Numbered from the stretch's first letter, positions 2,937 through 58,034 are shown. The stretch: 62,000 nucleotides of DNA from a virus (IMGVR_UViG_3300021963_000134:1-62000); one strand, 5' to 3'. Notes: generated by a model from the letters alone, not told the origin. Translations and numbers: made by a program.

Positions 2937-3550
2937 GCGACGAGAAGCTGAACGCCAACACCACACTCGACAAAGTGCTCGGGTATGTGGACTCGCCGTT
3001 CAAGCTTTTCTCCCTGCTGTTGATGGCCGTCGTTGCCTTCGTGGGTTACTTCCTTTGGCAGAATCAGGAATTTATGAGGGACGCCTACAAGGAGTCCAAG
3101 AAGCTGCCCGAGATCAACACCACACGGGCTGATGAGGCGAGCGCTATGTTGTTTAAACAAACTGGCGCTGCTGTTGTTGCCATTTTCAAGGTCAATCCTC
3201 TGTTCAATTCCCGGGTGGTCTACAAGGCATACACCAAGGATGGCCGGGACAAGAGCATCGACGACATCGATGTGGGCCTGTTTACACACAGCACACCCAA
3301 CAATGACGATGTGGTTAAGCTGATGACCAACCAAATTCCTTGTGGCGCGTACCGATATGCGCAGTCCGAGGTGGGCCTCTGGTACATCGAGAAGGGTGTG
3401 GGATACACCTGCCGGGTGAGCGTTCCGCCAGACAGCCCTCGTTTTGTAGGACAGGTCACTGTTGGCTGGCCTCAAGAGCCAGAAAACTTGGAGCAGATCA
3501 AATTTATGCTGGAGATCGCCAGCGCAATGCTAACCAAAAGGGGTAACTGA
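2933..3550 (+). CDS. Membrane protein with one N-terminal TM and a soluble domain; resembles T4-type holin T (GAF-like)
   Basis: TM FSLLLMAVVAFVGYFLW; motifs GAAVVAIFKVNP and FVGQVTVGW recall holin T; lies in the lysis cassette. Confidence 0.4.
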   Translation: MSDEKLNANTTLDKVLGYVDSPFKLFSLLLMAVVAFVGYFLWQNQEFMRDAYKESKKLPEINTTRADEASAMLFKQTGAAVVAIFKVNPLFNSRVVYKAYTKDGRDKSIDDIDVGLFTHSTPNNDDVVKLMTNQIPCGAYRYAQSEVGLWYIEKGVGYTCRVSVPPDSPRFVGQVTVGWPQEPENLEQIKFMLEIASAMLTKRGN

Positions 3551-3551
3551 C

Positions 3552-4049
3552 ATGGAATGGCTTAAACAAATCGCACCGACCATTGCCACGGCGATGGGTG
3601 GACCGTTGGCTGGCATGGCTGTGTCGGCCATCTCCAAGGCCATTGGCGTGGACCCCGACAAGGTGGGTGACATGATCTCTAACAACAAGCTGACCGCTGA
3701 GCAAATCGCGCAAGTCAAGATTGCCGAGATTGAGTTGCAAAAGCAAGCGCAGGAGCTTGGCCTAAACTTTGAGAAACTTGAGGTGGAAGACCGCAAGTCA
3801 GCTCGAGAGATGCAAGCCACCACTCGCAGCCTGATGCCTCCATTGCTGGCTGGCGCTGTCACTGTCGGATTCTTTGGCATCTTAATCATGATGTTCATTG
3901 GCCAAGTGGACAGTAACAACCCGGCCATCCTGATGATGCTGGGCTCGCTTGGCACGGCGTGGACGGGCATCATTGCGTATTATTTCGGCAGCTCTGCGGG
4001 ATCGCAGGCTAAAACTGATTTACTTTCAAAGGCAGGACCAGTCAAATGA
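3552..4049 (+). CDS. Holin (3TM / gene-transfer-release type)
   Basis: APTIATAMGGPLAG start, DRKSAREM, two C-terminal TMs, YYFGSS motif; directly before the endolysin. Confidence 0.7.
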   Translation: MEWLKQIAPTIATAMGGPLAGMAVSAISKAIGVDPDKVGDMISNNKLTAEQIAQVKIAEIELQKQAQELGLNFEKLEVEDRKSAREMQATTRSLMPPLLAGAVTVGFFGILIMMFIGQVDSNNPAILMMLGSLGTAWTGIIAYYFGSSAGSQAKTDLLSKAGPVK

Positions 4050-4636
4050 CAGAAGACCAACTCAAAGAGATGCACATCGACCCGGCTTGGCTTGAGCCAC
4101 TGACGGCAGCATTCAATCGTTTTGACATCAGCACCCCTGAGCGCCAAGCCGCATTCATCGGCCAGTGCGCCCATGAGTCCGGCAACTTCAAGACCCTGCA
4201 GGAGAACCTCAACTACAGCGCCAAGGGTTTAAACGCCACTTGGCCAAGCCGTTTCCCATCCGAGGAGGCGGCGCAGCCGTTCCACCGCAACCCTGAGAAG
4301 ATCGCCAACAAGGTGTACTCCGGGCGCATGGGCAACACCGAAGAGGGTGACGGCTGGAAGTACAGGGGCAGGGGTCTGATCCAGTTGACCGGCAAGGACA
4401 ACTACCGTCTTGCTTCTGACGCCTTAGGGGTGGACTTTGTGGCCAATCCCGACTTGGTTCTGACGCGGGAGTACGCAGCCCTTACGGCTGCTTGGTACTG
4501 GAACAAGCGCGGTTTAAACAAGGAGGCGGATGCCAAAGACTTCACCGGGATGACAAAGAAGATCAACGGTGGGACAATTGGGCTCGCAGACAGGGTTGCG
4601 CATATCAACACCGCCCTCAACGTCTTAACCGCTTGA
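4046..4636 (+). CDS. Endolysin, glycoside hydrolase family 19 (chitinase-like)
   Basis: AAFIGQCAHES, ENLNYS, GDGWKYRGRGLIQLTG, TKKINGG motifs. Confidence 0.9.
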   Translation: MTEDQLKEMHIDPAWLEPLTAAFNRFDISTPERQAAFIGQCAHESGNFKTLQENLNYSAKGLNATWPSRFPSEEAAQPFHRNPEKIANKVYSGRMGNTEEGDGWKYRGRGLIQLTGKDNYRLASDALGVDFVANPDLVLTREYAALTAAWYWNKRGLNKEADAKDFTGMTKKINGGTIGLADRVAHINTALNVLTA

Positions 4637-4644
4637 GGTAACTT

Positions 4645-8747: not shown

Positions 8748-11700
8748 ATGGCAGACGACACATATTATGGTGATTTTGACCCTGTGTACGAGGAAATCCC
8801 CTACTTTCCAAATTACGGCGGAGAGGCCCCGATTGATTCGAGCGAAGAACCGCGCCTGCCAGATTTTGCAGGCAGCGAATCGCAAGACCACGACTTCACC
8901 AAGGAAGAGGCTGATGCTCTTTGGAAAGCTGGCGTATGGGATCAGGTAAAGGGCCTTGGCAAGAATGTTTTGGACTTGCTGAAAACAAATGGCAAATTTG
9001 ATCCTGCAAAACTTGCTGTGCTTGGGAGTGGGTTTGCTGCTGCAAACAGGCCAAACAGTGCCGCGCCTACCGGCTACCAAGGCAAGATTCCCAAGCTGAC
9101 CGCAACCAGCAACATGCTGACTGCGCCCCCAGTGGGTCGTCGTCCCGGCTCGGGCGGTATCAATTACGGTGGTGGTGCAACATTCCGTGACGAGACTGGC
9201 AAAGTCATCTCCTCCAATGAGAAGACTTTGGAAGAGCTGCTGAAGGCCGCACGGGAAAATCCATTCAACCGCCCCAGCACGTACGAAAACCCAAGCTACG
9301 GGCGTCCGCCAGTAAACCCTACGCCCGGTGGTGGTGGCCTTCCAGATATTGCGCCACCTCCAAGCGGTGGTACGCGCCCAGAGGTTCAGCGGCCCCCGTC
9401 AACTGGCGGATACAAGCCGCCTCCTCCAACCATGGACACCAGCGGTTTCGTAACTGGTGCCGGGGATACTGGCGCTCGGTTCGATCCGTTTAAACCATCG
9501 CTGCCGGAAGGCACAACGATGGCCATGGACCCATCCACCCGGGTTGGCAACACCGTTACCACTGATGGCGTGACTCGTGGGTATGACCCTCTGCGCGGCA
9601 CAATGTTTACAAACGCAGAGATGCAAGCGCGTGCCGACAAGGAGCTTGCTGACCGCCAGCGCCGTCGTGCAGAGATGGCTGCGGGCACTTACGTCGAGCC
9701 AGAGTTCAGCACCTCATCGCAGAACACAGCACCCATTCACGAGAGCACCCCGGGCTTTGTTGCGCCAATCTACAACGCAGCCGTGTTGCCGCCCAAAGAT
9801 CAGCCGTATGTAAACCCGTACGCATCTTCCTTGGCTAATCCGGCAACCATCCCCCTGATGTCTGGCGAGACCCAAGAGCAGGGCGCTGCCCGGCTCAAAG
9901 CCCAGTCCGACGCCCTTGAGGCGCGACGTGCTGCTCGGTCGCAAATGCAAGAGGGTATTGCCAGCGGCGGTGCTGCTGTTGGCCTTGCAAAAGGTGGCTT
10001 GGCCCGTGACGGCTTCGTTGTCCCTGCTGACGTGGTGAGCCACTTCGGCAATGGCAGCTCTGAGGCTGGCCTGAAGCTGTTGGCCCAAAAGATTGGTGCC
10101 ACCCCGATCAAGGGTGCTGGCGATGGCATGAGCGACTCCATCAAAACCAAGATCGACGGCGTTCAAGAAGCGCGTGTCGCCAATGACGAAGCCTATGTTT
10201 CGCCTGAAATGGTGAAAAGACTGGGTAACGGGAGCCCTGAGAAGGGAGCCAGAAAGCTGTATGCCATGATGGATCAAGTCCGCAAAGCCCGCACCGGCAC
10301 AACCAAGCAGGGCAAAGAGATCGACCCGAACAAGTACATGCCCGGCGGCTCTGTGCAGCGGTATGAGGGTGGCGGCTCGACAAAGCTGCCCACTGGCGCA
10401 ACTGGCGCTGAGTCGAGCTTGTCCAACTGGGCTGGCGACTATGTGACCAACATGCTTGGTCAAGGTGCCGCGCTGGCCAATAAGCCCTACGAAGCGTACA
10501 CCGGCCCTCTGACGGCTGGTGCTTCAGGATTGCAGAACCAAGCCTTTGGCATGGCCTCGGGACTGCGGACGCCCGGCTCTATTGGCCAAGCTGCTGGCAC
10601 GGCGGGTGGCATTGCCAACTTGGCAGCAAACATGCGCTACACCCCGCAGACCACGGACTTCCTTGGCGGTGCCAACATGTCCGGCTTGGGCATGTCTCCG
10701 TCCTATGGTATGGGCATGCCTCAGCAGCCATCCCCGATGGGCACCTACAACAACCCCATCCCGATGCCGCGCCCCGGGATCACTTCGCCCGCCGATCAGG
10801 GTCCGACTACGTTCTCCACGAGGCCGACGCGTGTAAAGCAGGACCCGCAGCAGGTTCCTGACCGTATTGACTTCAACGATTACTTCAACGGCACGAATCC
10901 TTTCGGCGGAAATACAAATCAGGACCCCCAGCAAGACAACAGCATTAACTACGCCGGGGGCTCGCGTGACTTCGATGAAACCACGGGAACATACCGGTCG
11001 GAAGATGGTCGAGGCATGCTTCCTTTGCCAACAATTACACGGGATGAGAACGGACGCGAGTTTGATGCGGAAGGGCGCGAGTTTTATCGAGTCCCTGAAA
11101 CCGACTTTGACTACGGCCCAGACCCGTTGCAAAAGCAGCGCCCAACCCCGGCGGGTGGCGACAGCTTCCAGACGCGCCCCATGCGCGAATACGGCGGCTC
11201 ACGGTACGATCCAGCCACAGGCATTGAGTCACGCGACCTTGTGAAGCTCCAGCCCGGCGACCCACGACTTGAGAACACAAACTTCCAAGCGAAGCCTTTC
11301 CAAGTCGAATCATCTGAACCATTCATGCAGAATGGCGCGATGACCGGCGGCACCATGCGCCCACCAAGCCAAGAGGCAGGGTTGCCCGGCTTGATGCAGG
11401 GTCAGCAGGGCATGCAGGCTCAGCAGCCACAAGCCTCCCAGCAAGTGGGCAACATCGCTCAGCAGTACATGAACCCGTATCTGGAGTCGGCCCTGCGCCC
11501 ACAGATGGCGGAGATGCAACGTGCCGCTGACATTGCCCGCACGTCCGATGCCGCCCGCTTGACTCAGGCTGGCGCGTTTGGCGGTAGCCGTCAGGCCATC
11601 ATGGAATCCGAGGGTCGCCGCAACCTACTGGACAAGCAAAGCGAAGCTTTGGGTCAAGGCTACTCCACTGCCTACGACAAGGCCATGGCGCAGTTCAATG

Positions 11701-12089
11701 CAGACCAAGCCCGTCGCGCACAAGAGGCACAGTTCGGTGCCACGTTCGGCCTGCAAGGTCTTCAAACAGGCATCCAAGGTGCGCAGACTCAAGGTCAACT
11801 CGGCGCTCTGCAAAGCCAATCGGATGTCAACAACCTTCGCGCAACACTGGACGCTGGCGCTGTGGAGCGCGGCATCGAGTCCGAGGGCATTGCAGCCGAC
11901 AAGGCACAGTTCGAGGAGGCTCGTTTAAACCCCTACAAGATGCTGCAGTTCCAGCAGTCTCTGCTGTCTGGTATGCCGTTGTCTGCGCAGTCGTACAACA
12001 TGCCTGCGCAAAGCAATCTCCAGCAGTTTGCGGGTGGCGCGTCAACCCTTCAGGCTCTTCTGAAGAGCCTCGGGTACAAGTTCGACTAA
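8748..12089 (+). CDS. Putative DNA-transfer/ejection protein
   Basis: 1113 aa; QYMNPY...GAFGGSRQA motif of podovirus pilot/ejection proteins; contains xxGG motifs and a GDGMSDSI domain. Confidence 0.55.
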   Translation: MADDTYYGDFDPVYEEIPYFPNYGGEAPIDSSEEPRLPDFAGSESQDHDFTKEEADALWKAGVWDQVKGLGKNVLDLLKTNGKFDPAKLAVLGSGFAAANRPNSAAPTGYQGKIPKLTATSNMLTAPPVGRRPGSGGINYGGGATFRDETGKVISSNEKTLEELLKAARENPFNRPSTYENPSYGRPPVNPTPGGGGLPDIAPPPSGGTRPEVQRPPSTGGYKPPPPTMDTSGFVTGAGDTGARFDPFKPSLPEGTTMAMDPSTRVGNTVTTDGVTRGYDPLRGTMFTNAEMQARADKELADRQRRRAEMAAGTYVEPEFSTSSQNTAPIHESTPGFVAPIYNAAVLPPKDQPYVNPYASSLANPATIPLMSGETQEQGAARLKAQSDALEARRAARSQMQEGIASGGAAVGLAKGGLARDGFVVPADVVSHFGNGSSEAGLKLLAQKIGATPIKGAGDGMSDSIKTKIDGVQEARVANDEAYVSPEMVKRLGNGSPEKGARKLYAMMDQVRKARTGTTKQGKEIDPNKYMPGGSVQRYEGGGSTKLPTGATGAESSLSNWAGDYVTNMLGQGAALANKPYEAYTGPLTAGASGLQNQAFGMASGLRTPGSIGQAAGTAGGIANLAANMRYTPQTTDFLGGANMSGLGMSPSYGMGMPQQPSPMGTYNNPIPMPRPGITSPADQGPTTFSTRPTRVKQDPQQVPDRIDFNDYFNGTNPFGGNTNQDPQQDNSINYAGGSRDFDETTGTYRSEDGRGMLPLPTITRDENGREFDAEGREFYRVPETDFDYGPDPLQKQRPTPAGGDSFQTRPMREYGGSRYDPATGIESRDLVKLQPGDPRLENTNFQAKPFQVESSEPFMQNGAMTGGTMRPPSQEAGLPGLMQGQQGMQAQQPQASQQVGNIAQQYMNPYLESALRPQMAEMQRAADIARTSDAARLTQAGAFGGSRQAIMESEGRRNLLDKQSEALGQGYSTAYDKAMAQFNADQARRAQEAQFGATFGLQGLQTGIQGAQTQGQLGALQSQSDVNNLRATLDAGAVERGIESEGIAADKAQFEEARLNPYKMLQFQQSLLSGMPLSAQSYNMPAQSNLQQFAGGASTLQALLKSLGYKFD

Positions 12090-13817: not shown

Positions 13818-16800
13818 ATGGCTGAAAACTTCTGGGAAAAAGACACCGTTGCCGAGCCTGCTGGCGAATGGTGGAGCCAAGATAAGGTTGCGAAAGAGTC
13901 AGAGACGACAGCCATTTCCGACGAAGCCAAAAAGCGCACAGTCGGTGAAGCCATCAAAGATGTAGGCGCTGGACTTGTGTCCGGCGCTGGCTCTCTTGTG
14001 CAGCTTCCCGGCCAGCTCTACGGCTTGGCTACAGGCGACTTTTCTAAGACTGGAGCGCTTGGTCTTGGCGAAGACATCTCCAAATATGGTGAGGAGATGA
14101 AGTCTGCGGGTCTGAAGGCTCGGGAGGCCGAGCGTGCTGCCAAGATTCAAGAGGCAGAGAAGGAGGGCCAGTTTGCTGCGTTTAAAGCTGGTTTTGGTGA
14201 GACCATTACCGACCCTGCGCTGTTTGCATCTTTCATTGCTGAGCAAGTTCCAAACATCCTCCCGATGATTCTGACGGGCGGTGCTACTGCCGCCTTGACC
14301 GCTGGCCGAGCATCTGCTGCCGCTCTGGCAAAGGGTGCTACCAAAGAAGCTGCCGCTGACGCAGGCAAGATTGCAGCCGCCAAGGCTGGAACCACTGCCG
14401 CCGTTCAGACTGGTGCAGTCATGCAGGGCTCGGACATTGGCGCTGGGTCATACGATGAAATCTACAACGAGCTTCTTGCTCAAGGCAGGTCTGAAGAAGA
14501 AGCTGCTGCCGAGACAATCAACAAGGCCCGTGCCGCAGGTTTGACGGGTTATGGTTTTTCCCTTTTGGCAAACAAATACCTTCCCGGCGGTAAGGCTCTT
14601 GAAGAGATTCTGGCTGGCAAGAAAATTACCGGTAGCCGCATTGGCTCTGGTGTTGTAACTGGTGTCAAAGAAATCCCCAGTGAGAATATCGAGGAGGTCG
14701 GCGGTCGCATTGCGCAGAACGTTGCCGCTCAGCAGGCCGGACTTGACCGCGAACTGTTGGCTGGCACTGGAGAGACTGCCGCTCTGGCTACGCTTGGTGC
14801 CGCTGGTATTGGCGGTGCTGCTGGAGCGCTTGCGCCCCGACAAATTGGCCCAGAGCCTATTAAGACACCCGAGTCCGTAGATGCCTTCGAGAAAGAGAAG
14901 GCAGAGTTCCGCAAGCAGTTTGGCCAAGCCGAGCCTGTTGCTCCAACTGCCGAGACTGCAGAAGCACCCGTGGAGCGAGAGCCTGAGCCCGTAGAGCCCC
15001 CAACAGAGTTTCCCGGTGGCTACACAGCCACCCGCAGAGAAATCTCCCGCCAAGACGTACCTGAGTCGTTTGGCATCTTTGCCGAAGGCTCAGACAAGCC
15101 CCTGACCACTGTCTCCTCCCAAGAAGAGGTGGACAAGAAGATTCAGTCCCTGACCGAGATTCGCCAGCAAGAGCAAGAGCGTCTCATGGCAGAGGGCGAC
15201 AAGATCATGAAGCCCATCGAGGAGGCTCGCCGCAAGCTTGAGGTCATGGAGGCCACAGGCAAAGCCAATACCGATGAGTATGTGCAAGCCAAGGCGCTGC
15301 TCACTCAACAAGAGCAAGCAGCCGATGACAGGTTTGCAGAGATATTCGCCGAGATCAACAGCTACTCTGCACCCCTGACATCCGCGCCAATCGGCACTCG
15401 TACTGATGTGCAGAATGAGTTCGTCGTCAACCGTGGCAATGAGCCAATTGGGGTATTCCCAACTCTGGAGCAGGCCGAAGCCACGCTGCGCGAGCGCGAG
15501 CCAGAAGTGTTTAAACAGGCAGAGGTTGCAGCCCGCACGCAGGAGCTGGAGAAGACCCTCAAGCCTATGCTGGCCAAGTTCAACCTTGGTGATGTTGGTT
15601 TAAACATTGTTGAGAAGCTCGAGAACAACGCGGGCGGAAGTTATCTCGACAGCCTGATCCGGGTTTCGCTGGAAGAGGCCAACCCCATCCAGACCATGCG
15701 CCACGAGTCCCTGCATGCGCTGAAGGACTTGGAGTTCTTCACCCCGCAGCAATGGAATGCTCTGACTGAGCGTGCAAACAAAGATTGGCTCGTCCAACTG
15801 AAGAAGACGCCTTACGAAGAAGGCGTGTCTCGCTACGATGCGTACCTCGACATGTTTACCAAAGAGGGTCAGGCAAAAGGATTGCAAGGCCCGGAGCTGG
15901 AGCAATACGCCAACGAGGCTTTGGTTGAAGAAGCCATCGCTGATGCGTTTGGCGCTTACGACCGTGGAGCTACACCGCCTCCCGGCATGATTGCTGCGCT
16001 GTTCAAGAAGCTGAAGAACTTCTTCATGAACTTTGGCCAAGCCCTGCGCGGTGCTGGCTTTGAGTCTGCGGATGATGTATTCCAGCGCGTTGAGCGTGGT
16101 GAGTTGAAGTCCCGCAAGCCAAAGGCAGAAAAGGCCGCGCCGAAAGCGGAGTCAAAAGAGAAGCCAGAAGAGAAGGCTGAAAAACCAGAGCAGACTATGG
16201 GTGACCGCCTGAGTCTGCTGCGTAAAGCATATCCGGATGAGATCGACATCTCAACGCAAAACCCTCAAGGTGTTAAACGCATCTATGACCCCATCACTGA
16301 GATGCTGTCTATTGATGAGGCCGCTGTGCGCGAGGCCATGAAGGCCAATCCAAAGATGGCTCAAAAGACGATCCAAGCCATCAAGTCTTATGGGTTTATT
16401 CCTGACGGCACGCCAAATAATAAGGTTCTTGAGTTGTTCCGGGAAAACATTGTTAACAACTTGATGTTCTTGTACAACAAGGTTCCGGCCAGTATTCGCA
16501 ACCGCAGCAAGCTTTGGTATGACGGAGCCAACAAAATTGCCGATGAGATGGCAAACAACTACGACATGTCGCTGCGACAGATTGCTGCGATCATGGCGGC
16601 AATGTCTCCGCAAAAGGATTGGTTCCAAAACGTATCAATGGCTGAACGGGCCATTGATGTCTTGAAAAAACAAGGCGATCAGGCTTGGACGCCAGACATG
16701 CTGAAGTACGCCGAGAGCTATGTCAAAGAAACAAAAGACAGGAAAGAGCGTGAGAAGCGCCAAGATGCTTTTGAGAAGATCAAGAAAGTTGCCAAATCCG

Positions 16801-19800
16801 GAACCGTCTTGAATGACATGGACGAGAAGTCTGCCGCAGCGTTTATCCGAGCATATGACGAAGCGTTCCACTCAAGGAACTATCGTATTGTTACGCCAGA
16901 GGGTGGTTTTGGCGACTTGGTCAAGAACAATGACGGCACACCTTCCACAATGATGTGGTCAACTTACGGCCCAATTGAGAAGGCCGTCAGCATCTTCCGT
17001 GATGGAAGCCGTGAGAATGTGAGTCAGCAACTTGGCTTCGAGCACAAGATTCGTTCTTTCTACAACAACATTGCCAACCCCAACAGTGAGATTGATCACG
17101 TCACCATCGACACGCATGCCGTGGCTGCTGCGTTGTTTGAGGCTTTGGCTGGGACAGATACCGAAGTAACGCAAAACTTTGGCGGTACAGGCTCCTCTGA
17201 TGTACTTGGTGTTGGTGGCACATATGGCTTGATTGCTGATGCCTACCGAGAAGCTGCCAAGAAGGCTGGTGTTCGCGCCAGAGAGATGCAGTCCATCACT
17301 TGGGAGGCTGTCCGGGCGCTCTTCTCTGAAGAGGTCAAGTCAACCATCAAGCCAAAGATTCGCGCCGAATGGAAGAAATACAAAACCGGGCAGCAATCTT
17401 TTGACGAGACCCGCGACAACGTCTTGGAGATTGCAGGTCAACCCGATAAGCTTGATGAGCCAGACTGGATTGACTCCGGCGAAGGTCAGTTTGTGTCCGA
17501 TGGCGGCACAAGCTACGACAAGACGTTTACACCCACTGGTGGTGTTCGCCTGCGTGAATCACGAGAGATTCGTGAGAAGGTCACGTTTAACTTGTCGGCA
17601 GTAACCAACAGCATCCCGGGGCTGCGTGAGCTTTACAGCAAGGCCATGAAGGGTGATGACAAGGCTTATGAGTTGCTGCAAAAGGTTGCCGAAAGCTCCT
17701 TGCAGTATTTGCTCAAGGGCTCCGGCGCAAAGATCAAGATCGAATATTCCAAGGGAGTTTATCTTTCTGACCGTGAGCCATCAATCTCTGTCAGCGCCGC
17801 ATTTGACGAGAGCAATCAACGAGCCGTAATGGGCGCTCTTGCCAAGTTTGCAGAGAACTACAACCAGCAACAGATTCACGTCCGAGTCCCGACCATCCGT
17901 AAGCTTGGTTATGAGTTTGGAGATGGCTCTTACGCAACACCTGTGTACGAAATTCCGTTGCGCAAGAAATTGAACAACGCGCAGATTTCGGACATAATCA
18001 ATCAGACGGGTTTGCAAGGCTTCTCTGTCTCCGAGAGGCAAGTTGTTGCCGAAGGCAAGACAGTCACAGAAAACTTCTTAACCGCATACTGGGTAGCACC
18101 AAATGACATCGAACAAGAATTCGCAAGCTTCGACAGCTTCGAGCAAGCCATCCGGGCAGCACAGGCCTTGGCTGGAGTCGAGGGTTCAAAACCTAAACAA
18201 TCTGTTGAACGCCTCTACGTCTACGGCTCAGGACCGGGAGCAAGAATCTCCTACGAAGAAATACAAAGCGACATTCTTTCCCGAGACGGAACGGACACAG
18301 TCACGCCAAGGCTGATCTCCGAATACCTGAGGGGCGAACCCATAAAGGTGTTTAAACAAAAAGACCTGACCAACAAGCAGGTCGAAAGCCAGAAGCTACT
18401 GGCAAAAGTTTTTGACGAGCTCCCGACCAAGGATTTAAAGAACCCCTTGGTGCGCAGCGCTTACAACGCCTTGAACAAAGAGCTTGTACAGCAGTACAAC
18501 GCCATGCCAATCAAAGTCCAGCTTGTCGAGGGTCAGCGGGACGAGGATGGCAACTTCATTGACATCTACAAAAACAGCGCAGAGATGCGCAAAGATGTGA
18601 GTGACAACAACAGGTTCAAGGTTTACAAGACAGAGCCCGGAACATTTGGTCCTGAAGGTTTTAATTTCAAAGACCACCCGCTTTTAAAAGACTCTGGCGT
18701 CAAAGATGCAGATGGCAAAGCCATGCTGTTCAATGATGTGCTTCGCGCCGTCCACGACTACTACGCCCACAACCTTTCCGATATTCAGTTTGGCCCCAAA
18801 GGTGAGGCCGCTGCTTGGCGTAACCACATGTCCGTCACCGCCAACCCATTGGCTCGATGGGCGCTTACCGCTGAAACGCGGGCACAGAATGCGTGGCAGA
18901 ACTTCAGGGAGGGTGTAGAAGACGTTCCTCTTAAAGATCGCCCTTACGCCGATCAGAAGGCCATGCTGCCTCCAATCAACTTTACTTTTACGGGTGAAGA
19001 AGGCGTTGATCGCGTCATGGCAGACTACGCAGCAACTCTGACCCCCGAGCAGCAGCTTGGGAGCCTTCCGGCCAACAGTCAATATGCCACAGAAGTTAGA
19101 AAGCAAATGCCGAAGCTCAGCCTTCGCACGCACTTCTCATCCGTTAAGGCGGCAAAGGATGCCGCATCCGAAGCCAAAGTCCCAAAGACTGAAGAGTTTA
19201 AACGTTTCATTGCGGGCAACCAGTGGACAGATGCCGACGGAAACCCCAAGGTTTTCTATCACGCTACTGCACGAGAGTTCTTTGAGTTCACCCCCGCAGG
19301 TCAGTCGCAAGCAATCTTCTTGGCCGATACACCAGAAGAAGCCGAGACATTCGGCAGCATTGCCGAAGACCGTCTGCGCCGCGAAATCTATCGAGCCCTT
19401 GGTAAAGATGAGAAGCTAAACTTCTTCCAAAACATCGTAGATGCTCAAGTGAAGAACGGCTTCATGTCGGAAAAGCAAGGCTCTGACTTCATGCGTCAGG
19501 CCAAGCGCAAGGTTCCCGAGTACGGTGACTTTGGTGACATCGAGCAAGAGACCTACGACGCTCTGCTTGATCTGTCCCCTACCCGCATGTCAATCATGCC
19601 CCTGTACGCACGGGCAGAGACTCCATTCGAGTTCGAGAACCCAGACCATGTAGAGCAGGTCATGCAGTGGGTTGCCAACAACACAGAGTACCCTCAGGAC
19701 TTCCCAGACAAGTGGCTGGCAGGTATGAAGGGCCGCATCAAGCAGGGCCTGTGGCAAGCAATCGAAGACAAGCGTGTGCAGCAAGCTATTCGTGCCTTGG

Positions 19801-38433: not shown

Positions 38434-38620
38434 CTCAGGTCTCCTCAATCAAAGTTCTTGTCAAACTCGCCCTTGTCACTCTCAAGAGCGACAACGTGGT
38501 TGTCCTCGCCGTAGGTGATGTAGTCCACCTCATCGTGCAGTTTCTCGAGCGCATCTTCTGCGCTCTCACCCTTGACCCAGACGGTGCATTGAAATTTGTA
38601 CAGGTTCATGTTGCTTCTCC

Positions 38621-40228: not shown

Positions 40229-40235
40229 ACAGACC

Positions 40236-41696: not shown

Positions 41697-41709
41697 GTCA
41701 GGTCTCCGT

Positions 41710-42285
41710 TTAAACAAGGTTCAGGGTGTCGGAATCGACAGGGCAGGAAGGAAGGCCAAGGGCGGCCCATTTGCTGGTGAGGCGCACGGTGTACCCGCAG
41801 GACGGGCACACTGCCTTGAGCATGCGAGTGGTCTGCACTTTCTTGGTGCTCATGGTCAGGGCGGCATGAGGGTATGGGCCAAGCGAGTCCACGATTGCCC
41901 CGAAGGTGGGGAGGAACTCAGGGCCACGGGCAGTGGCTTTCCAGCCATCCACAGGGGTGGCCTCAAGGTGCATCAGGGCGGCAACCTTTTGGAAGTTGAC
42001 CCCGTGGTTCATTGCCCCGGCAGTCGAGTGGCACAACTCATGCACCAACACCTCGAAGACATCGATTGGATTGGCAAGCTTGGGGTTGATGAGAATTTCG
42101 AAGGTCTTGTCAGCAGAGGCGGTGTCTGCCCAGCACTGACCAAGTGCGCCAGTGCGATTGGCCCCCAGCGGGAAACCACAGGCCACGCGAACGTTCGCAG
42201 GGAGTGGCTTGCCAATTGCATCAAAGAAGGGGCGCAGTTCACTCACGGCGGCTGAAAGCCAGTCTTCACGGTTGTTGATTGTCAT
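41710..42285 (-). CDS. SprT-like zinc metallopeptidase with C-terminal Zn ribbon
   Basis: VLVHELCH..NHG..F; KAVCPSCGYTVR..PSCP. Confidence 0.8.
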   Translation of the reverse strand: MTINNREDWLSAAVSELRPFFDAIGKPLPANVRVACGFPLGANRTGALGQCWADTASADKTFEILINPKLANPIDVFEVLVHELCHSTAGAMNHGVNFQKVAALMHLEATPVDGWKATARGPEFLPTFGAIVDSLGPYPHAALTMSTKKVQTTRMLKAVCPSCGYTVRLTSKWAALGLPSCPVDSDTLNLV

Positions 42286-42332
42286 ATCGTTTCTCCAGTG
42301 CTAGTGATTGTATAGCGTTTAAATGGAAGGGG

Positions 42333-42662
42333 TCAATAGTTGCGGCTGGCATGGATGCGAGCCACATATTCACGGGCTGAGACCCTGCGCACAATGGCGT
42401 GGAAAGAGACGCACCCACAGCAGTCGTATTCATGGCGGCAACCACTGCGAGACAGGGTGCTGGCGATGGCGTTGGACAGGTCTGTCTTGCGGTGTGATGA
42501 CGGGGCAATCACCCGTTGGGTGAAGGTGTCGGTGTCATCAGTGCTGGCAACCAGTTTGAGGGGCAGGATTTTGGCGCTGACGGCGTGATCCCAGTCATCC
42601 TCATGCGACCAGCCCAAGGTGAACTTGTGGGTGAGACGGTAGTAAAGATCGATGCTATGCAT
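42333..42662 (-). CDS. Hypothetical protein
   Basis: AAGGA RBS; GCRHEYDCCGC motif. Confidence 0.55.
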   Translation of the reverse strand: MHSIDLYYRLTHKFTLGWSHEDDWDHAVSAKILPLKLVASTDDTDTFTQRVIAPSSHRKTDLSNAIASTLSRSGCRHEYDCCGCVSFHAIVRRVSAREYVARIHASRNY

Positions 42663-42687
42663 GGTGTTTCCTTTCGGTGTTTAAACG

Positions 42688-43970: not shown

Positions 43971-44000
43971 ATCATATCACTAGTGTTTAAACAGTGTCAA
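43971..44000 (-). promoter_or_regulatory. Strong sigma-70 early promoter
   Basis: Minus strand TTGACA-N18-TATGAT with TG extension; GTTTAAAC in the spacer. Confidence 0.75.
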
Positions 44001-44221
44001 ACAGATACCTGAGCAAACTGTAGGGATATTGGTTCGAGGGTCAGGGTGCAAGGGGTATCAACAGTGCTGAGACCCTTGGGTTTGGCGCTCTTATTAGTGG
44101 GATACAACGCCGCAGATCAGAGGGTCTACAAGCCCCGGAAGGGGCATCAGGCGGGGTAGGTATGGGTAAGGTGTTTACACCGCCAGCAATCACGGTGTGC
44201 AATGAAAAAGTTAACAGAAAG

Positions 44222-44293
44222 TTATCCACAGTATCCACAGGAGGTTGTGGATAAGTCGGGTTATCAACAGGGAGTTGTGGATTGCGTGGATAA
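44222..44293. promoter_or_regulatory. DnaA-box cluster
   Basis: Perfect TTATCCACA (44222) and TGTGGATAA (44246); near matches at 44231, 44261, 44276, 44285. Confidence 0.8.
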
Positions 44294-44365
44294 GTCCATG
44301 AGTACTTATTCATTGCAGACGGCGTTTAAACTGGTGATCTGCGATGGGGTGAGGGGATGGGCACT

Positions 44366-45096: not shown

Positions 45097-45312
45097 CGTG
45101 TAAACTCAGGGGAGGACATCGGTCATCAGTGCTGGGAGGCGGTGTGCGATTGGCTGGGAGTGGCGACCCCACCGGCCCCCGACCCCCCAAAGCTGTCAGC
45201 GAGGCCCCGCTCCCGTATACGCTCTAATCCACACAAACAATCCCATAGCTACACACCCCCATCATTTCCAAATGCCCACCCCCCGGGGGTATATATATTT
45301 TGTGTAAACACC

Positions 45313-45341
45313 TTGCGAACGTTCTGTTGTGCGTTTAAACT
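45313..45341 (+). promoter_or_regulatory. Sigma-70 promoter candidate (possibly leaderless transcript)
   Basis: TTGCGA-N17-TAAACT; ATG at 45348 lies at the expected start site. Confidence 0.45.
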
Positions 45342-45347: not shown

Positions 45348-45530
45348 ATGGTACTGACTTTATCAAATGGAAAAACCTTGGAGCGAGGCGTTGGATGCCC
45401 CACGATGGGTTTGCGTTTACACGCAGTAACCCTTGATTTGGAGGATTTGTACAAACTCCGCAAGATGGATGATGAGCAGATTAAGTTTTGGTTGTCTACG
45501 CTATGCACAAGGTTTGCGCCGCAGGGTTGA
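45348..45530 (+). CDS. Hypothetical protein
   Basis: Fills the gap before the LexA-like gene; no RBS seen. Confidence 0.4.
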   Translation: MVLTLSNGKTLERGVGCPTMGLRLHAVTLDLEDLYKLRKMDDEQIKFWLSTLCTRFAPQG

Positions 45531-45532
45531 TC

Positions 45533-45766
45533 ATGTTGAATGAAAAGCATCAATTGGTTTTGGACTTCATCCGGGCTTATATCAAGCTCCATGGTGTTGC
45601 GCCGTCGTATTCCGTGATTGCCCGGGGACTGGGATTGAAGAGTAAGTCCAACATCCACCGGGTGGTCCACCTCCTGAAGGATGAGGGATTGCTGGTGGTC
45701 AAGCCGTACCAGTTCAATTCGATCAAGCTCATTGACCGCAGTGTCAGAGGGGTCTCTTCTCTATGA
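45533..45766 (+). CDS. LexA-like DNA-binding domain protein (no peptidase domain)
   Basis: VLDFIRAYIKLHGVAPSYSVIARGLGLKSKSNIHRVVHLLKDEG matches the LexA winged HTH; revised start MLNEK. Confidence 0.8.
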   Translation: MLNEKHQLVLDFIRAYIKLHGVAPSYSVIARGLGLKSKSNIHRVVHLLKDEGLLVVKPYQFNSIKLIDRSVRGVSSL

Positions 45767-47259
45767 TGACTCGTCAGGAGGTAGAGAAGTACAGGGAGCT
45801 GATTCCGTTGGTGGATGATCTTGAGAGAGCCAAGATCATGATGCTGTTGGAGTACGACAGGATTGAGAAGTGCAAGGAGTCGTTCATTTACTTCGCCTCC
45901 CACATGTGGCCCGGGTTCATTTCCGGGAAGCACCACCAGATCATGGCCAACGCTTTTGAGCGTGTGGCCAAGGGGGAGTTGAAGAGACTCATCATCAACA
46001 TGCCTCCTCGGCACACCAAGTCCGAGTTTGCTTCGTATCTGCTACCGGCATGGTTTCTCGGGAAGTACCCGGAGAAGAAGATCATCCAGACTGCTCACAC
46101 CGCAGAACTGGCTGTTGGTTTTGGCCGCAAGGTGAGGAACTTGGTCTCCTCTGAGGCCTTCTCCAATGTGTTTGACACCAAACTATCTTCTGACTCCAAG
46201 GCCGCAGGAAGGTGGAACACCCACAAGGGTGGTGATTACTTCGCGATTGGTGTTGGTGGTGCGGTAACCGGTAAGGGTGCTGATCTTTTGATCATTGACG
46301 ACCCCCATTCGGAGCAGGAAGCCAAGCAGGGCAACCCCGCAGTCTTTGACAATGTGTATGAGTGGTACACATCAGGCCCTCGTCAGCGTCTGCAGCCGGG
46401 TGGGGCCATCATTATTGTGATGACGCGCTGGTCAAAGAGAGATTTGACTGGGCAGATTCTCAAAAACTCGGAAAAAGACGGTGTAAACGAGTGGGAAGTC
46501 ATCGAATTCCCCGCAATTTTGCCGTCTGGAACCCCTTTATGGCCCGGATTTTGGAAGAAAGAGGAGTTGGAGGCCATCAAGGCTGAGATTCCTGTCGCCA
46601 AATGGGAAGCGCAGTACCAACAGAACCCCACATCCGAGGGAAATGCGATCATCAAGCGTGATCACTGGCGGATTTGGGAGTCGGATCAGGCCCCGCAGTG
46701 CGATTACATCATCCAAAGCTGGGATACAGCCTTCGAGAAGTCCAACAGGGCCGACTATTCGGCTTGTACGACGTGGGGAATCTTCCAGCATCCCAATGCC
46801 AACGGGGAAATGAAGCCCAACATCATCTGTCTGGACGCAGTAAAGGCCCGGATGGAGTTCCCTGAGCTGAAACAAAAGGCGCTTGAGATGTACAAGGAGT
46901 GGGAGCCGGATACCCTGATTGTGGAAAAGAAGGCCGCTGGCGCTCCTTTGATCTATGAGCTTCGGCAGATGGGAATTCCGCTTTCGGAGTACACACCGGG
47001 CAAAGGAAGCGATAAGATTGCGCGTGTAAACGCAATCTCAGACCTTTTTGCCTCCGGAGTTGTTTGGTGCCCTGAAACAAGATGGGCAGATGAATTGATC
47101 GAAGAGTTGGCTGCTTTCCCAAACGGGGACCATGACGACCTTGTTGACTCATCGAGCCAAGCGCTTCTCAGATTCAGAAGAGGCGGGTTCATCTCGATAG
47201 ATTCGGATGAGCCTGAAGAGAAGCGCTATTTCCGCCGCAGAAGCGGTGGGTTTTATTAA
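45763..47259 (+). CDS. terL: Terminase large subunit
   Basis: INMPPRHTKS, LLIIDDP, MTRW, AQYQQNP, SWDTA, HDDLVDS. Confidence 0.95.
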   Translation: MMTRQEVEKYRELIPLVDDLERAKIMMLLEYDRIEKCKESFIYFASHMWPGFISGKHHQIMANAFERVAKGELKRLIINMPPRHTKSEFASYLLPAWFLGKYPEKKIIQTAHTAELAVGFGRKVRNLVSSEAFSNVFDTKLSSDSKAAGRWNTHKGGDYFAIGVGGAVTGKGADLLIIDDPHSEQEAKQGNPAVFDNVYEWYTSGPRQRLQPGGAIIIVMTRWSKRDLTGQILKNSEKDGVNEWEVIEFPAILPSGTPLWPGFWKKEELEAIKAEIPVAKWEAQYQQNPTSEGNAIIKRDHWRIWESDQAPQCDYIIQSWDTAFEKSNRADYSACTTWGIFQHPNANGEMKPNIICLDAVKARMEFPELKQKALEMYKEWEPDTLIVEKKAAGAPLIYELRQMGIPLSEYTPGKGSDKIARVNAISDLFASGVVWCPETRWADELIEELAAFPNGDHDDLVDSSSQALLRFRRGGFISIDSDEPEEKRYFRRRSGGFY

Positions 47260-53333: not shown

Positions 53334-53362
53334 TTGCAATGGTTTAAACGCAATGGTATATT
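53334..53362 (+). promoter_or_regulatory. Sigma-70 promoter
   Basis: TTGCAA-N17-TATATT with TG extension; GTTTAAAC in the spacer. Confidence 0.65.
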
Positions 53363-55828: not shown

Positions 55829-56866
55829 ATGGCGACAAAGAAGATCAAGCGCTTTAACGAAGGCGGAGTGTCTGACAAAGACCGTGGACTGGAATCATCG
55901 AAAGATGAGAAGGTTGGCTTCTTTGAACGCCTGCGCATGGGTAACATCGACCAAGAGGGCTCTGAGGCCTACAACCGCTTTGGCGCTGGCCGCGCCAAGG
56001 CTGATCGCGACATGGCAAGTGAAGCTGCAGCCATGAAGGCTGTGGATGCGTATCGCGCAGCTCCCGCCGCTCCCGCTGAAGAGCGTGATGCAATGGAAGA
56101 GGCGAACGCACGCGAGCCCATTCCAGTTCCCGCTGGACCAAGGGTTGAGTCGCCCAAACCGGGCGGTAGACCTCGTGTAAACGTTCAGGCAGAAAAGCCT
56201 TCTGCTCCAGCCAAGCCAAAGATGCAAGAGCAGACCTACACCCGCAGGGGTGGGGCCACAGCCGAAGATCGCGCATCCAGAGCTGCTCCGGCCTCCAACC
56301 CCAACTACTCCAACGAGGGTCGTGGTCGTGAGATGACCAAAGAGCAGCAGTACGCTCGAGCCGAAGCTGAAGCAAAGTCGCCAGAGGGTGTGGCAAAGCG
56401 CAAGAAAATGGAAGCCGAGCAGGGTCTTGAGCGCGTAACGCCCGAAACAGCCTTGCTTCCCGGTGGTGGCTTGAAGATGCTGAGCGAAGCAGCCAAAAAG
56501 CTTGCAGCCCCAAAGATGGCCAAGTACGCTCAAGAGGCTTTGCCAGCACCAACCAAGCGTCTGCCTTTCGATAAGGCTGGCTCTCTTGCCCGCAAGCGCT
56601 CCGAGAGAGCGGATATGCGCCGAGAGGAGATGCTGAAAGAAAACGCCAGACGCTACGGGCTAGACGAAGACGCTCCCGGCTACCAAGCAGCCGCTGACGC
56701 TGTGCGCAAAGGTCTTGGCGGTAAAGACTTTGGTCTGAAGAAGGGCGGCTCCGTAAAATCGAAGCCTGTCATGAAGAAGATGGCCTCTGGAGGCTCTGTC
56801 ACACCTGCATCCAAACGTGCAGATGGCATCGCTACTCGCGGCAAAACCCGTTGCAAAATTTGTTAA
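55829..56866 (+). CDS. xxGG-motif protein, low complexity
   Basis: FNEGG, LKKGG, MASGG, RADGIATRGKT; AAGGAG RBS. Confidence 0.65.
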   Translation: MATKKIKRFNEGGVSDKDRGLESSKDEKVGFFERLRMGNIDQEGSEAYNRFGAGRAKADRDMASEAAAMKAVDAYRAAPAAPAEERDAMEEANAREPIPVPAGPRVESPKPGGRPRVNVQAEKPSAPAKPKMQEQTYTRRGGATAEDRASRAAPASNPNYSNEGRGREMTKEQQYARAEAEAKSPEGVAKRKKMEAEQGLERVTPETALLPGGGLKMLSEAAKKLAAPKMAKYAQEALPAPTKRLPFDKAGSLARKRSERADMRREEMLKENARRYGLDEDAPGYQAAADAVRKGLGGKDFGLKKGGSVKSKPVMKKMASGGSVTPASKRADGIATRGKTRCKIC

Positions 56867-56875: not shown

Positions 56876-57097
56876 ATGAACGACGAAATGGAAAAGAAAC
56901 CTCGCGGCATTAAAGATGGTGTTTACACAGAAGACTCCGGCCTTCCTCCTCCACAGGACATCGATGGCGGCTCGGCCTCCAAGCCCAAAAAGCCAAAGAA
57001 GTACGCCAGTGGCGGCGTTACTCGCGCCGATGGCTGCGTCACCAAGGCCCACACCAAGGGCAAGATGATCAAGATGGCTGGCGGCGGGATGTGCTGA
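56876..57097 (+). CDS. Small xxGG-motif protein
   Basis: YASGG, RADGCVTKAHTKG, MAGGG. Confidence 0.6.
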   Translation: MNDEMEKKPRGIKDGVYTEDSGLPPPQDIDGGSASKPKKPKKYASGGVTRADGCVTKAHTKGKMIKMAGGGMC

Positions 57098-57098
57098 C

Positions 57099-57332
57099 AT
57101 GTTAGCAAGCCGTGGTATGGGGGCCATCGCCCCCTCTAAAATGCCCAAAGGCGTCCGCAAGGCTCGCCGGGACGACACCGACTTCACGCAGTACGCTGAA
57201 GGCGGCAAGGTGGGTTTGTACGCAAACATCCACGCCAAGCGTGCTCGGGGTGAGAAAATGCGCAAACCGGGCCAAAAAGGCGCACCCACGGCTCAGGCGT
57301 TCATCGACTCAGCCAAGACAGCGAAGAAGTAA
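57099..57332 (+). CDS. Small basic xxGG-motif protein
   Basis: YAEGG, GLYANIHAKR. Confidence 0.6.
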   Translation: MLASRGMGAIAPSKMPKGVRKARRDDTDFTQYAEGGKVGLYANIHAKRARGEKMRKPGQKGAPTAQAFIDSAKTAKK

Positions 57333-57335
57333 ACC

Positions 57336-58034
57336 ATGGCAACATCAGGCACCACCGCTTTCAATATGGACCTCACGGAAATCGTTGAGGAGGCGTTTGA
57401 ACGCGCTGGTGGTGAGTTGCGCACGGGCTACGACCTGCGCACAGCCAGCAGATCGCTGAACCTGATGTTTGCCCAGTGGGCGAACCGTGGTTTAAACATG
57501 TTCACGTATGAGCAGGGGTCCATTAACTTGGTCGCCGGTCAAGCCACATACGACCTACCAGAAGACACCGTTGACTTGCTGGAGCATGTGATCCGTACCG
57601 GCGCTGGCAATGCTTCGACTCAGGCCGATCTGACCATTACCCGCATCAGTGTCTCAACCTATGCCACGATTCCAAACAAGCTCCAGCAGGCTCGTCCAAT
57701 TCAAGTCTGGATTGAGAGACTGGACACGCCTCGCATTACCGTTTGGCCTACGCCTGATAACTCCCAGCCGTACGTTTTTGTGTATTGGCGTCTTCGTCGT
57801 ATGCAGGACGCTGGCACAGGTGTAAACACCATGGACATGCCATTCCGCTTCTACGAAGCGATGACGGCTGGCTTGGCTTATCACCTTGCCCTGAAGATTC
57901 CCGGAGCCATGGAGCGTTTGGGCGTCCTCAAGCAGCAGTATGACGAGGCTTGGGAGCTGGCCAGTTCGGAGGATCGCGAGAAAGCTGCAATACGCTTTGT
58001 GCCGCGTCGTCAGTTCATCGGTGGAGGCACCTGA
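57336..58034 (+). CDS. Head-to-tail adaptor (P22 gp4-like)
   Basis: IVEEAFER, RSLNLMFAQWANRG, GLAYHLA motifs. Confidence 0.65.
   Translation: MATSGTTAFNMDLTEIVEEAFERAGGELRTGYDLRTASRSLNLMFAQWANRGLNMFTYEQGSINLVAGQATYDLPEDTVDLLEHVIRTGAGNASTQADLTITRISVSTYATIPNKLQQARPIQVWIERLDTPRITVWPTPDNSQPYVFVYWRLRRMQDAGTGVNTMDMPFRFYEAMTAGLAYHLALKIPGAMERLGVLKQQYDEAWELASSEDREKAAIRFVPRRQFIGGGT

Follow-up and report, generated by a model that had tools for sequence, protein, structure and literature searches.

The virus record IMGVR_UViG_3300021963_000134:1-62000 is a freshwater phage genome of 62,000 bases from IMG/VR, rated complete by CheckV and with a G+C content of 51-58%; the whole stretch is referred to as the window. 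It contains the octamer GTTTAAAC far more often than its composition predicts, together with the one-letter variant GTGTAAAC/GTTTACAC. In otherwise unrelated phages this word goes together with one gene, located in the window at 41710-42285 on the minus strand, which encodes an SprT-like protein of 191 amino acids (aa) with a C-terminal zinc ribbon. Judging mainly from sequence comparison, we put the probability at about two in three that the word is a dispersed, operator-like site in double-stranded DNA that is read by this zinc-ribbon protein.

The initial annotation of the window had listed 30 copies of GTTTAAAC, and all of them were found at their positions. Its "about 19" copies of GTGTAAAC/GTTTACAC turned out to be exactly 19, again all in place. 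Dinucleotide shuffles of the window contained 0.45 copies of GTTTAAAC (standard deviation 0.66, maximum 3), and none of 100 shuffles reached 30. The 19 copies of the variant compare with 1.01±0.94 (maximum 4) in the shuffles. Markov models of order 0-3 predicted 0.33-1.78 copies of GTTTAAAC in the window, and the reversed control word CAAATTTG was present once. GTTTAAAC was the commonest 8-mer of the window. Among its one-mismatch variants GTGTAAAC was the only one with a strong rise (19 copies); ATTTAAAC was present in 6 copies, CTTTAAAC in 4, and the others in 3 at most. AAAC was followed by a purine at 24 of the 30 GTTTAAAC sites, and GTTT was preceded by C or T at 23 of them. The fuller form of the recognised word is better written Y-GT[T/G]TAAAC-R. 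The term palindrome, under which the word had been annotated, is correct for GTTTAAAC and does not cover the full story; actinophages use the asymmetric form almost exclusively.

Gene calls on the window were rough and gave 91 genes with 93% coding sequence. Twenty of the 30 GTTTAAAC copies lie within called genes and 10 outside them or at their edges, non-genic DNA making up 7% of the window; for both word forms together, 33 of 49 sites are inside called genes. The genic copies use both stop-free frames, as had been annotated: 8 read xGT-TTA-AAC, 12 read xxG-TTT-AAA-Cxx, and none falls into the stop frame. When synonymous codons were shuffled within genes (1000 times), 1.02±0.98 copies of GTTTAAAC (maximum 5) were obtained versus the 20 observed, and 2.1±1.2 copies of GTGTAAAC/GTTTACAC versus 13 observed. 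The initial annotation would have withdrawn its claim if the enrichment had vanished under a codon-aware null; the enrichment persisted. The word spells 8 of the 15 [CSRG]-L-N tripeptides and 12 of the 17 x-F-K-[LPHQR] tetrapeptides encoded in the window, and it contains 8 of the window's 43 TTA codons. We concluded that selection acts on the DNA itself and that the enrichment is no artefact of codon use or composition. The density per kb is highest in the early/replication module (1.2), followed by the tail module (0.72) and the head module (0.36).

The link from gene to word was addressed with cultured phages. The 191-aa protein had tblastn matches in 164 cultured phage records, and one search returned 591 homologues at E ≤1e-5. 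Twelve phages were chosen for host diversity from the 164 records. A match to the protein family phrog_6361 confirmed the gene in 10 of the 12; for Percival and Elezi, annotation and tblastn served as confirmation. The following lines give for each phage the word, the copies observed and expected (order-2 Markov model) and the rank among enriched 8-mers.

Streptomyces phage Bogota: GTGTAAAC, 39 copies, 0.04 expected, rank 1
Arthrobacter phage Elezi: GTGTAAAC, 23 copies, 0.14 expected, rank 1
Microbacterium phage Percival: GTGTAAAC, 14 copies, 0.03 expected, rank 1
Bacteriophage 4A: GTGTAAAC, 13 copies, 0.22 expected, rank 1
Pseudanabaena phage Pan1: GTTTAAAC, 16 copies, 0.02 expected, rank 2
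Dinoroseobacter phage R5C: GTTTAAAC, 17 copies, 0.04 expected, rank 2
Acinetobacter phage Alexa: GTTTAAAC, 8 copies, 0.98 expected, rank 4
Burkholderia phage Mica: GTTTAAAC, 7 copies, 0.09 expected, rank 6
Pseudomonas phage Persinger: GTTTAAAC, 4 copies, 0.10 expected, rank 62 (weak rise)
Escherichia phage ECO1230-10: GTTTAAAC, 5 copies, 0.97 expected, rank 233 (weak rise)
Pseudomonas phage Epa5: neither word, 0 copies
Bordetella phage CN2: neither word, 0-1 copies

The word was among the top six 8-mers in 8 of the 12 phages (rank 1-2 in six), rose weakly in two and was absent from two. For Pan1, R5C, Alexa and Mica the top 8-mer was the overlapping CGTTTAAA. The two phages without the word, Epa5 and CN2, have the only aligned homologues that lack every ribbon cysteine. 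CN2 has another enriched 8-mer, AAGAAGTA, with 15 copies versus 0.59 expected. Five relatives of the window phage by large terminase (terL) that have no phrog_6361 match (DSL-LC04, HTVC027P, 023Pt_psg01, HTVC023P and MinM2) contained 0-3 copies of the word, at or below expectation.

We compared the 91 window proteins with 17 genomes by tblastn. The SprT-like protein alone matched all 10 word-positive phages, and every other window protein was common to one of them at most. The word-positive phages are unrelated to the window phage and have hosts among Actinobacteria, Proteobacteria and Cyanobacteria. The structural proteins of the window were common only to the five word-negative terL relatives. 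None of the five genes that the initial annotation had proposed for DNA-binding proteins (45533, 23077, 29995, 29286, 24328) is common to other word-rich phages; the gene that is, 41710-42285(-), was missing from its list.

The reverse test started from the word. IMG/VR was scanned for two copies of GTTTAAAC 20-50 bases apart, and for CAAATTTG in the same manner as a control. Each scan provided 80 listed loci, with at least 39 (word) and at least 36 (control) further stretches left out, and only records of at least 20 kb were used (36 of the 80 word loci and 38 of the 80 control loci, from which 34 and 36 records were examined). Among these listed loci, 11 of 34 records picked by the GTTTAAAC pair had a phrog_6361 match versus 0 of 36 picked by the CAAATTTG pair. 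The match depended on the word count of the 34 records: it was present in 10 of 10 with at least 19 copies, in 1 of 8 with 5-10 copies and in 0 of 16 with 4 copies or fewer. Four of the ten strongly enriched records belong to the terminase clade of the window (73-80% identity), and six have a distant or no detectable terminase.

The following features of the proposed reader are encoded on the minus strand of the window.

41710-42285, minus strand: SprT-like gene, 191-aa product with C-terminal zinc ribbon (phrog_6361, 1.4e-39)
42028-42042, minus strand: HExxH codons, H82-E83-L-C-H86, metal-binding motif
41713-41832, minus strand: zinc-ribbon codons, residues 152-191 (C160, C163, C181), proposed DNA-reading module

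The phrog_6361 match spans positions 6-194 of 203, and the protein is 36% identical to Elezi gp44 (E = 4e-38). None of H82, E83, H86, C160, C163 and C181 varies among 25 aligned homologues. A precomputed match to PF10263 (SprT-like) was present in 2 of 120 listed homologues, and PF17283 (Zn_ribbon_SprT) had no match at E ≤1 in the six frames of the window. Current annotations of the family include "SprT-like protease", "transcription elongation protein" and, in one Bordetella phage homologue, "antirestriction protein". The AlphaFold (AF2) model of the 191-aa protein had a confidence (predicted local distance difference test, pLDDT) of 82. Residues 2-136 of the model were aligned by VIA-align to abylysin (4jiu; Z 8.1, root-mean-square deviation (rmsd) 3.7, 93 residues), SPRTN (6mdx; Z 7.5, rmsd 3.1, 94 residues) and Wss1 (5xbn; Z 7.3, rmsd 3.2, 102 residues). 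Residues 152-191 were aligned to an archaeal MCM zinc ribbon (8q67; Z 3.9, rmsd 2.6 over 39 residues).

Homologues in six word-rich phages (G002, G003, G020, G022, G029 and G033; G numbers designate IMG/VR records) have HExxH replaced and retain the ribbon region and the words. It is, therefore, not proteolysis that connects the protein with the word, and as far as the sequences tell, the ribbon is the part of the SprT-like protein that goes with it. Directly after the SprT-like gene the window has genes for a MoxR-like AAA ATPase and a VWA protein (38621-41696, minus strand). In G001, G002 and G004, too, the SprT-like gene is followed by a long open reading frame (ORF) homologous to the MoxR-like protein of the window, and neither the MoxR-like nor the VWA gene is common to the unrelated word-rich phages.

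The asymmetric variant showed no strand bias, either relative to the sense strand in window genes (7 vs 6) or by genome strand in four actinophages (43 vs 46). Such a distribution is consistent with a site read as duplex DNA and speaks against an RNA signal as well as against a site tied to the direction of transcription. A homodimer model of the 191-aa protein had a score of 0.72, and the best control had 0.00; of proteins solved as one-chain pairs 20 of 30 reached the mark of 0.72, and of those solved as single chains 1 of 23 did. The homodimer runs agreed in at least 63% of contacts, with a partner pLDDT of at least 85, and the modelled interface comprises the invariant residues 36-39 and 56-59 and the ribbon. 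The doubly altered GTGTACAC was present in 0-1 copies in each of six genomes (G000-G005). On the basis of the model the SprT-like protein probably binds as a dimer. If each half-site were bound by one ribbon of a dimer, this would account for the palindrome, for the acceptance of a single altered half-site and for the near-absence of GTGTACAC.

Of 15 word-positive genomes, 10 had a copy no more than 110 nucleotides (nt) ahead of the SprT-like gene, compared with a base rate of 7 of 91 window genes. In the window the predicted promoter of this gene and two further predicted promoters contain a word in the spacer between the -35 and -10 elements.

42307-42336, minus strand: sigma70-like promoter (predicted) of the SprT-like gene, TTGACC-18-TACAAT, variant word in the spacer
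42317-42324, no strand assigned: ATTTAAAC in the spacer of the SprT-like gene promoter
43971-44000, minus strand: best sigma70-like promoter match of the window, TTGACA-18-TATGAT (11/12), heading a leftward operon, word in the spacer
53334-53362, plus strand: sigma70-like promoter (predicted), TTGCAA-17-TATATT, just past a terminator-like hairpin, word in the spacer

At the promoter position where the window has ATTTAAAC, the relative G001 has an exact GTTTAAAC, and the unrelated G022 has the promoter-like sequence TTGACT-tt-GTTTAAAC-N8-TAAACT ahead of its SprT-like gene. A word lies in the -35/-10 spacer ahead of the SprT-like gene in the window, G001, G022, G033 and Alexa, and directly after the -10 element of this gene in ECO1230-10, Mica and Elezi. 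Of the 29 sigma70-like matches (predicted promoters) in the window, 3 contained a word versus about 0.9 expected, and the two best matches were among them. The best-supported function of the word would be autoregulation of the SprT-like gene at its own promoter. Six or seven copies in the window are located 10-31 nt upstream of start codons; such positions may simply be the cheapest place for an AT-rich word in a tightly packed genome.

Repeated promoter-like units with the word were observed in two actinophages. In Elezi (34268, 34997, 39981 and 40410) the unit is TTGCGT-N18-TAGACT followed directly by GTTTACAC, and in Percival (20236 and 45213) it is TTGCGC-N5-GTTTACAC-N4-TATAGT. A cluster of DnaA-box-like 9-mers at 44210-44300, about 1.5 kb upstream of terL, is flanked by GTTTACAC (44173) and GTTTAAAC (44324). 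At least three DnaA-like boxes within 150 nt were present in 34 related sources, and in 26 of the 34 a word was at most 105 nt away on the terL side. To judge from its sequence, the cluster is probably a replication origin that recruits host DnaA. A primase-helicase gene was seen at 34703-36397, and no DNA polymerase was seen. A 92-aa protein encoded directly upstream of terL (45488-45766, plus strand) has a LexA-like winged-helix domain (9.8e-9) and may be a small terminase or a regulator.

At least 598 relatives of the large terminase were present in IMG/VR, and the nearest cultured ones (47-59% identity) were from Phage DSL-LC04, Pelagibacter phages HTVC027P and HTVC023P, phage 023Pt_psg01 and Synechococcus phage MinM2. 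The best 80 terL-relative loci (776 kb) contained 522 exact copies of GTTTAAAC, with at least one copy in 70 of the 80. The whole records of G001, G002 and G005 contained 21, 46 and 17 exact copies and 18, 27 and 15 variant copies, respectively. Sites of the window were conserved in position at 14 of 19 places in G001, 6 of 8 in G005 and 4 of 10 in G002, compared with identities of 0.41, 0.165 and 0.094 for all aligned 8-mers, and several sites "lost" in relatives had changed into one of the variants. This retention above the 8-mer baseline, with several losses leading to variants, indicates that the word is under purifying selection with turnover. Two relatives had no exact GTTTAAAC: G003 contained 15 copies of GTGTAAAC, 14 of GTTGAAAC and just 3 of TTTAAA, and G004 contained 22 of ATTTAAAC and 8 of ATTTAAAT. 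The exact palindrome looks avoided in both, perhaps owing to host cutting of GTTTAAAC or TTTAAA. G005 had the words and no SprT-like match, which is uninformative because this record (73% complete) begins about 650 nt before terL and is without the region that holds the gene in the window.

The sites in the window are as follows. For the exact copies of GTTTAAAC no strand is assigned.

3151-3158: within gene 2933-3550(+)
4227-4234: within gene 4046-4636(+)
4512-4519: within gene 4046-4636(+)
9488-9495: within gene 8748-12089(+)
11923-11930: within gene 8748-12089(+)
15509-15516: in the gene of 2889 codons, 13818-22487(+); kept in G001 and G005
15598-15605: in 13818-22487(+); GTGTAAAC in G001, kept in G005
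18350-18357: in 13818-22487(+)
19196-19203: in 13818-22487(+); kept in G005
20374-20381: in 13818-22487(+); kept in G005
21209-21216: in 13818-22487(+)
28969-28976: intergenic, 10 nt upstream of the start of 28752-28958(-)
30862-30869: within the gene 30742-31416(-) for a Sak-like annealing protein; kept in G001 and G002
32453-32460: in the RusA-like gene 32289-32723(+)
32829-32836: in the non-coding stretch 32724-33570
32906-32913: in the non-coding stretch 32724-33570
34673-34680: 22 nt before the primase-helicase ATG at 34703; kept in G001 and G002
35529-35536: in the primase-helicase gene
36663-36670: in the convergent intergenic region 36398-36760
38223-38230: 13 nt upstream of the start of 37997-38209(-)
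38641-38648: at the VWA gene's 3' end and 31 nt ahead of the start of 38445-38609(-)
39151-39158: in the VWA gene 38621-40228(-)
40895-40902: in the MoxR-like AAA gene 40236-41696(-)
41708-41715: spanning the SprT-like stop codon, 11 nt ahead of the MoxR-like start; same place in G001
42679-42686: intergenic, 16 nt upstream of the start of 42333-42662(-)
43985-43992: in the spacer of promoter 44000-43971
44324-44331: beside the DnaA-box cluster
45333-45340: non-coding, upstream of the winged-helix gene and terL; kept in G001 and G002
53342-53349: in the spacer of promoter 53334-53362; kept in G001, G002 and G005
57490-57497: within gene 57336-58034(+)

The copies of the GTGTAAAC variant, with the strand on which it reads, are:

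3280-3287, minus strand
17525-17532, minus strand
19854-19861, minus strand
22540-22547, minus strand
24050-24057, plus strand
24544-24551, plus strand
28848-28855, minus strand; kept in G001
29732-29739, minus strand; kept in G001, G002, G003 and G004
32764-32771, plus strand; non-coding
36608-36615, plus strand; non-coding
44173-44180, minus strand; beside the DnaA-box cluster
45098-45105, plus strand; non-coding
45302-45309, plus strand; non-coding, exact GTTTAAAC in G002
45415-45422, minus strand; non-coding
46481-46488, plus strand; in terL
47024-47031, plus strand; in terL, kept in G001, G002, G004 and G005
56175-56182, plus strand
56921-56928, minus strand
57820-57827, plus strand

The product of 13818-22487(+), a 2889-aa polyvalent protein with LPD38, DUF7178 and ART-PolyVal domains, is encoded by a gene that contains 6 exact words and 2 variants. 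About 600 nt at 32940-33560, between the RusA-like gene and the next rightward genes, have no convincing ORF; no Rfam family and no tRNA was found there, and the Rfam and tRNA scans gave no match in the entire window. A near-identity DNA search of 30000-36000 against cultured phages also gave no match.

If the SprT-like protein is the reader, its zinc ribbon would be the module that recognises the double-stranded word Y-GT[T/G]TAAAC-R. A symmetric dimer would place one ribbon on each half-site (GTTT|AAAC) and would tolerate one altered half-site (GTGT). Sites in the spacers of its own promoter, of the strong leftward promoter at 44000 and of the promoter at 53334 would serve as operators, and binding there, presumably repressive, would provide feedback on its own synthesis and on the other promoters. 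The remaining copies (about 45), which are scattered over genes and the junctions between them and reach their highest density in the early/replication module, would be kept so that the chromosome is occupied at many points. Candidate purposes of the intragenic copies are a roadblock, the marking or organisation of the chromosome, and the anchoring of the protease domain.

Several observations weigh against this reading. The case consists of co-occurrence, placement and a model, from which we infer binding. The panel was hand-picked and includes related members (W04-W07; actinophage clusters), so that it represents fewer than 12 independent lineages. Since Epa5 and CN2 belong to the same family, the contrast of lost ribbon and lost word is effectively one event. 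The ribbon of G003 is almost identical to that of the window, yet the words of G003 are GTGTAAAC and GTTGAAAC only; the reader therefore does not account for differences in word class, and covariation of ribbon sequence with word class, which we had considered, was not seen. Three moderately enriched records had no phrog_6361 match, namely G025, G030 and G031, with 7, 10 and 7 copies in 20.5, 42.9 and 32.6 kb, respectively, and there another reader, or chance in AT-richer DNA, is possible. The assignment of the protein to known folds is also less than firm. PF10263 scored 20.3-21.3 bits, under the Pfam cut-off of 25.6; the VIA Z values of 7.3-8.1 are modest and in a range that the tool itself calls common, with Z <8 possibly reflecting a common arrangement; and Foldseek against the PDB had no match at E ≤0.001 (best E 0.066). 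In 16 genomes together, 6 of 501 promoter-like (sigma70) matches had a word in the spacer versus about 3.1 expected, and a location in the -35/-10 spacer was dropped as a general rule. Finally, the 49 sites are irregularly spaced, with a coefficient of variation of 1.14 versus 0.97 for random placement. Regular spacing was ruled out by this value, which argues against a simple requirement for one site every x kb.

We also considered that the word is not bound by a dedicated protein at all, being a palindrome made or kept by methyltransferase-linked repair, or a modification site of host or phage, similar to HIP1 (GCGATCGC). With HIP1 it shares the octameric palindrome and the hyper-abundance within genes, and its one-letter deviations are biased to one position. 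The initial annotation had seen no methyltransferase in the window, in agreement with our searches for N6/N4, Dam-type and C5 methyltransferases (PF01555, PF02086 and PF00145), which gave no match for these three families. Moreover, in hosts of three phyla the word goes with a phage gene and not with a host lineage, it is not enriched in five close structural relatives without the gene, actinophages have almost exclusively the non-palindromic form, and its placement at the promoter of the SprT-like gene has no role in such a model, which we regard as the least probable explanation of all. The annotated alternative of a distributed binding or modification site is thereby narrowed: selection at the DNA level speaks for a binding site and the above findings against modification, and the proposed decoy function or protection from a defence system received no support either way. 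The word might instead be a promoter element, used by the sigma-like protein of the phage (23077-23751) or by a sigma-like helix-turn-helix (HTH) protein as in Cluster AZ phages. The window does encode a sigma region 4 protein (PF04545, 1.5e-16), several words are at promoters, and according to the available text of a preprint, Cluster AZ, EB and EH actinophages have a sigma-like HTH protein beside the SprT-like gene (10.1101/2025.05.26.655371). The same text reports that Cluster FP phages have the sigma-like gene and lack the SprT-like gene (10.1101/2025.05.26.655371). The window protein is, however, unlike Elezi gp42 (E = 17) and has no match in the 10 word-positive phages, and Elezi gp42 has tblastn matches just in Percival and phage 4A among 22 genomes. 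As most copies are intragenic, in both orientations and without strand bias, and no second conserved element was seen beside the word, we consider a promoter element very unlikely. The protein encoded at 23077-23751 (minus strand, 224 aa) consists of sigma-70 region 4 only, up to 57-60% identical to region 4 of RpoD in other records, and could be a sigma mimic or appropriator.

A function in RNA (processing, translation or RNA-binding in 5' leaders), or as a nick or cleavage site for replication or packaging, appears just as improbable as a promoter element. It would be compatible with the copies shortly upstream of start codons, with some actinophage words between the ribosome-binding site and the ATG, and with the words that flank the DnaA-box cluster in the window and accompany it in relatives. 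An RNA signal would, however, need a sense bias, which the asymmetric variant does not have, two thirds of the copies are deep inside genes, and the gene junctions may simply be where such a word costs least. Somewhat less remote, and still unlikely, is another reader, a host protein or an unrecognised phage protein, on or beside which the SprT-like protein acts, for example by cleaving a host protein at the word. SprT, Wss1 and SPRTN are described, in the portion of the source available, as DNA-dependent proteases of DNA-bound proteins (PMC5127644). Association tests cannot separate a protein that reads the word from one that needs it, and the three moderately enriched records without phrog_6361 would also fit. 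On the other hand, no other window protein is common to the word-positive phages, and a single host reader with the same 8-bp specificity in Actinobacteria, Proteobacteria and Cyanobacteria would be unlikely. The six word-rich phages without HExxH indicate that proteolysis is not the conserved activity, and the loss of the ribbon is accompanied by the loss of the word.

Recognition of the word by the zinc ribbon of the SprT-like protein could also serve a broader purpose than the regulation of promoters. We suggest, with considerable reservation, that in tailed phages the word and its SprT-like ribbon protein together constitute a portable "self-marking" module, with a near-same 8-bp code across phyla, which protects or organises the incoming DNA through occupancy at dozens of points and controls promoters as a side function. 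The protein, as an active protease or as a pure binder, might block or cut host proteins that travel along foreign DNA or silence it. The one-letter variants without the exact palindrome in G003, G004 and the actinophages would then reflect an arms race against host enzymes that cut GTTTAAAC or TTTAAA.

If binding by the SprT-like protein is true, a phage family without a function, with its 164 cultured records and 591 homologues, gains a role as a sequence-specific DNA binder. The word would be a rare case of a short DNA code that phages of Actinobacteria, Proteobacteria and Cyanobacteria have in common and a clean natural example of selection for a DNA word that overrides codon choice, and it could be used to annotate regulatory sites in thousands of uncultured phage genomes. 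In the available text of the preprint, lysogeny control in Cluster AZ, EB and EH phages is tentatively linked to two conserved DNA-binding proteins upstream of the integrase, one of them the SprT-like protease (10.1101/2025.05.26.655371). For these actinophages the protein and its word would constitute a concrete candidate regulator with its sites. Mentions of "motif" in that text refer to protein motifs, and it contains no mention of a palindrome, a conserved sequence or a promoter (10.1101/2025.05.26.655371). The main literature, supplements aside, yielded no paper connecting GTTTAAAC or GTGTAAAC with phages or with SprT-like proteins, and as far as searched, the pairing of word and reader is new to the literature.

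The system closest in logic is that of the stoperators of Cluster A mycobacteriophages, the sites of the L5 and Bxb1 immunity repressor, where a short site for a phage protein is present dozens of times, in genes and at the early promoter. Stoperators are oriented with the direction of transcription, whereas no orientation bias relative to transcription was seen here. The proposed reader combines a putative N-terminal metalloprotease fold with a C-terminal zinc ribbon and is not an HTH repressor, and the site is 8-10 bp long and often palindromic. The Cluster A repressor binds an asymmetric site, as stated in the accessible part of its description (PMC9283540), and an asymmetric form, GTGTAAAC, is used here too. 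Stoperator sequences differ among immunity groups according to the accessible part of another report (PMC6550527), whereas the same word was found here in phages of three bacterial phyla.

HIP1 of cyanobacteria resembles the word as an over-represented octameric palindrome in coding sequence that is conserved in place, a likeness that is statistical only. According to the available text of the sources, HIP1 exceeds expectation by tens to hundreds of times, is present in coding sequence and is retained at its positions (PMC5861425, PMC4390886). While HIP1 is a feature of host chromosomes tied to methyltransferases that recognise it, the word tracks a phage gene.

With SprT, Wss1, SPRTN and the minigluzincins the 191-aa protein shares HExxH and a putative DNA-binding module after the protease-like domain, and its model has modest fold matches among them. 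It differs from them in that several members of its family lack the catalytic motif and yet have the ribbon and the words. To our knowledge, none of SprT, SPRTN, Wss1 and ArdC is known to read a DNA sequence. ArdC of plasmid R388 is similar by description, as a protein of a mobile element in which DNA-binding and metalloprotease domains are combined; its domain order differs from that of the SprT-like ribbon protein. ArdC acts early after entry and binds single-stranded DNA, with no specific sequence mentioned in the available text (PMC7213743), whereas the SprT-like ribbon protein would read a defined word in double-stranded DNA.

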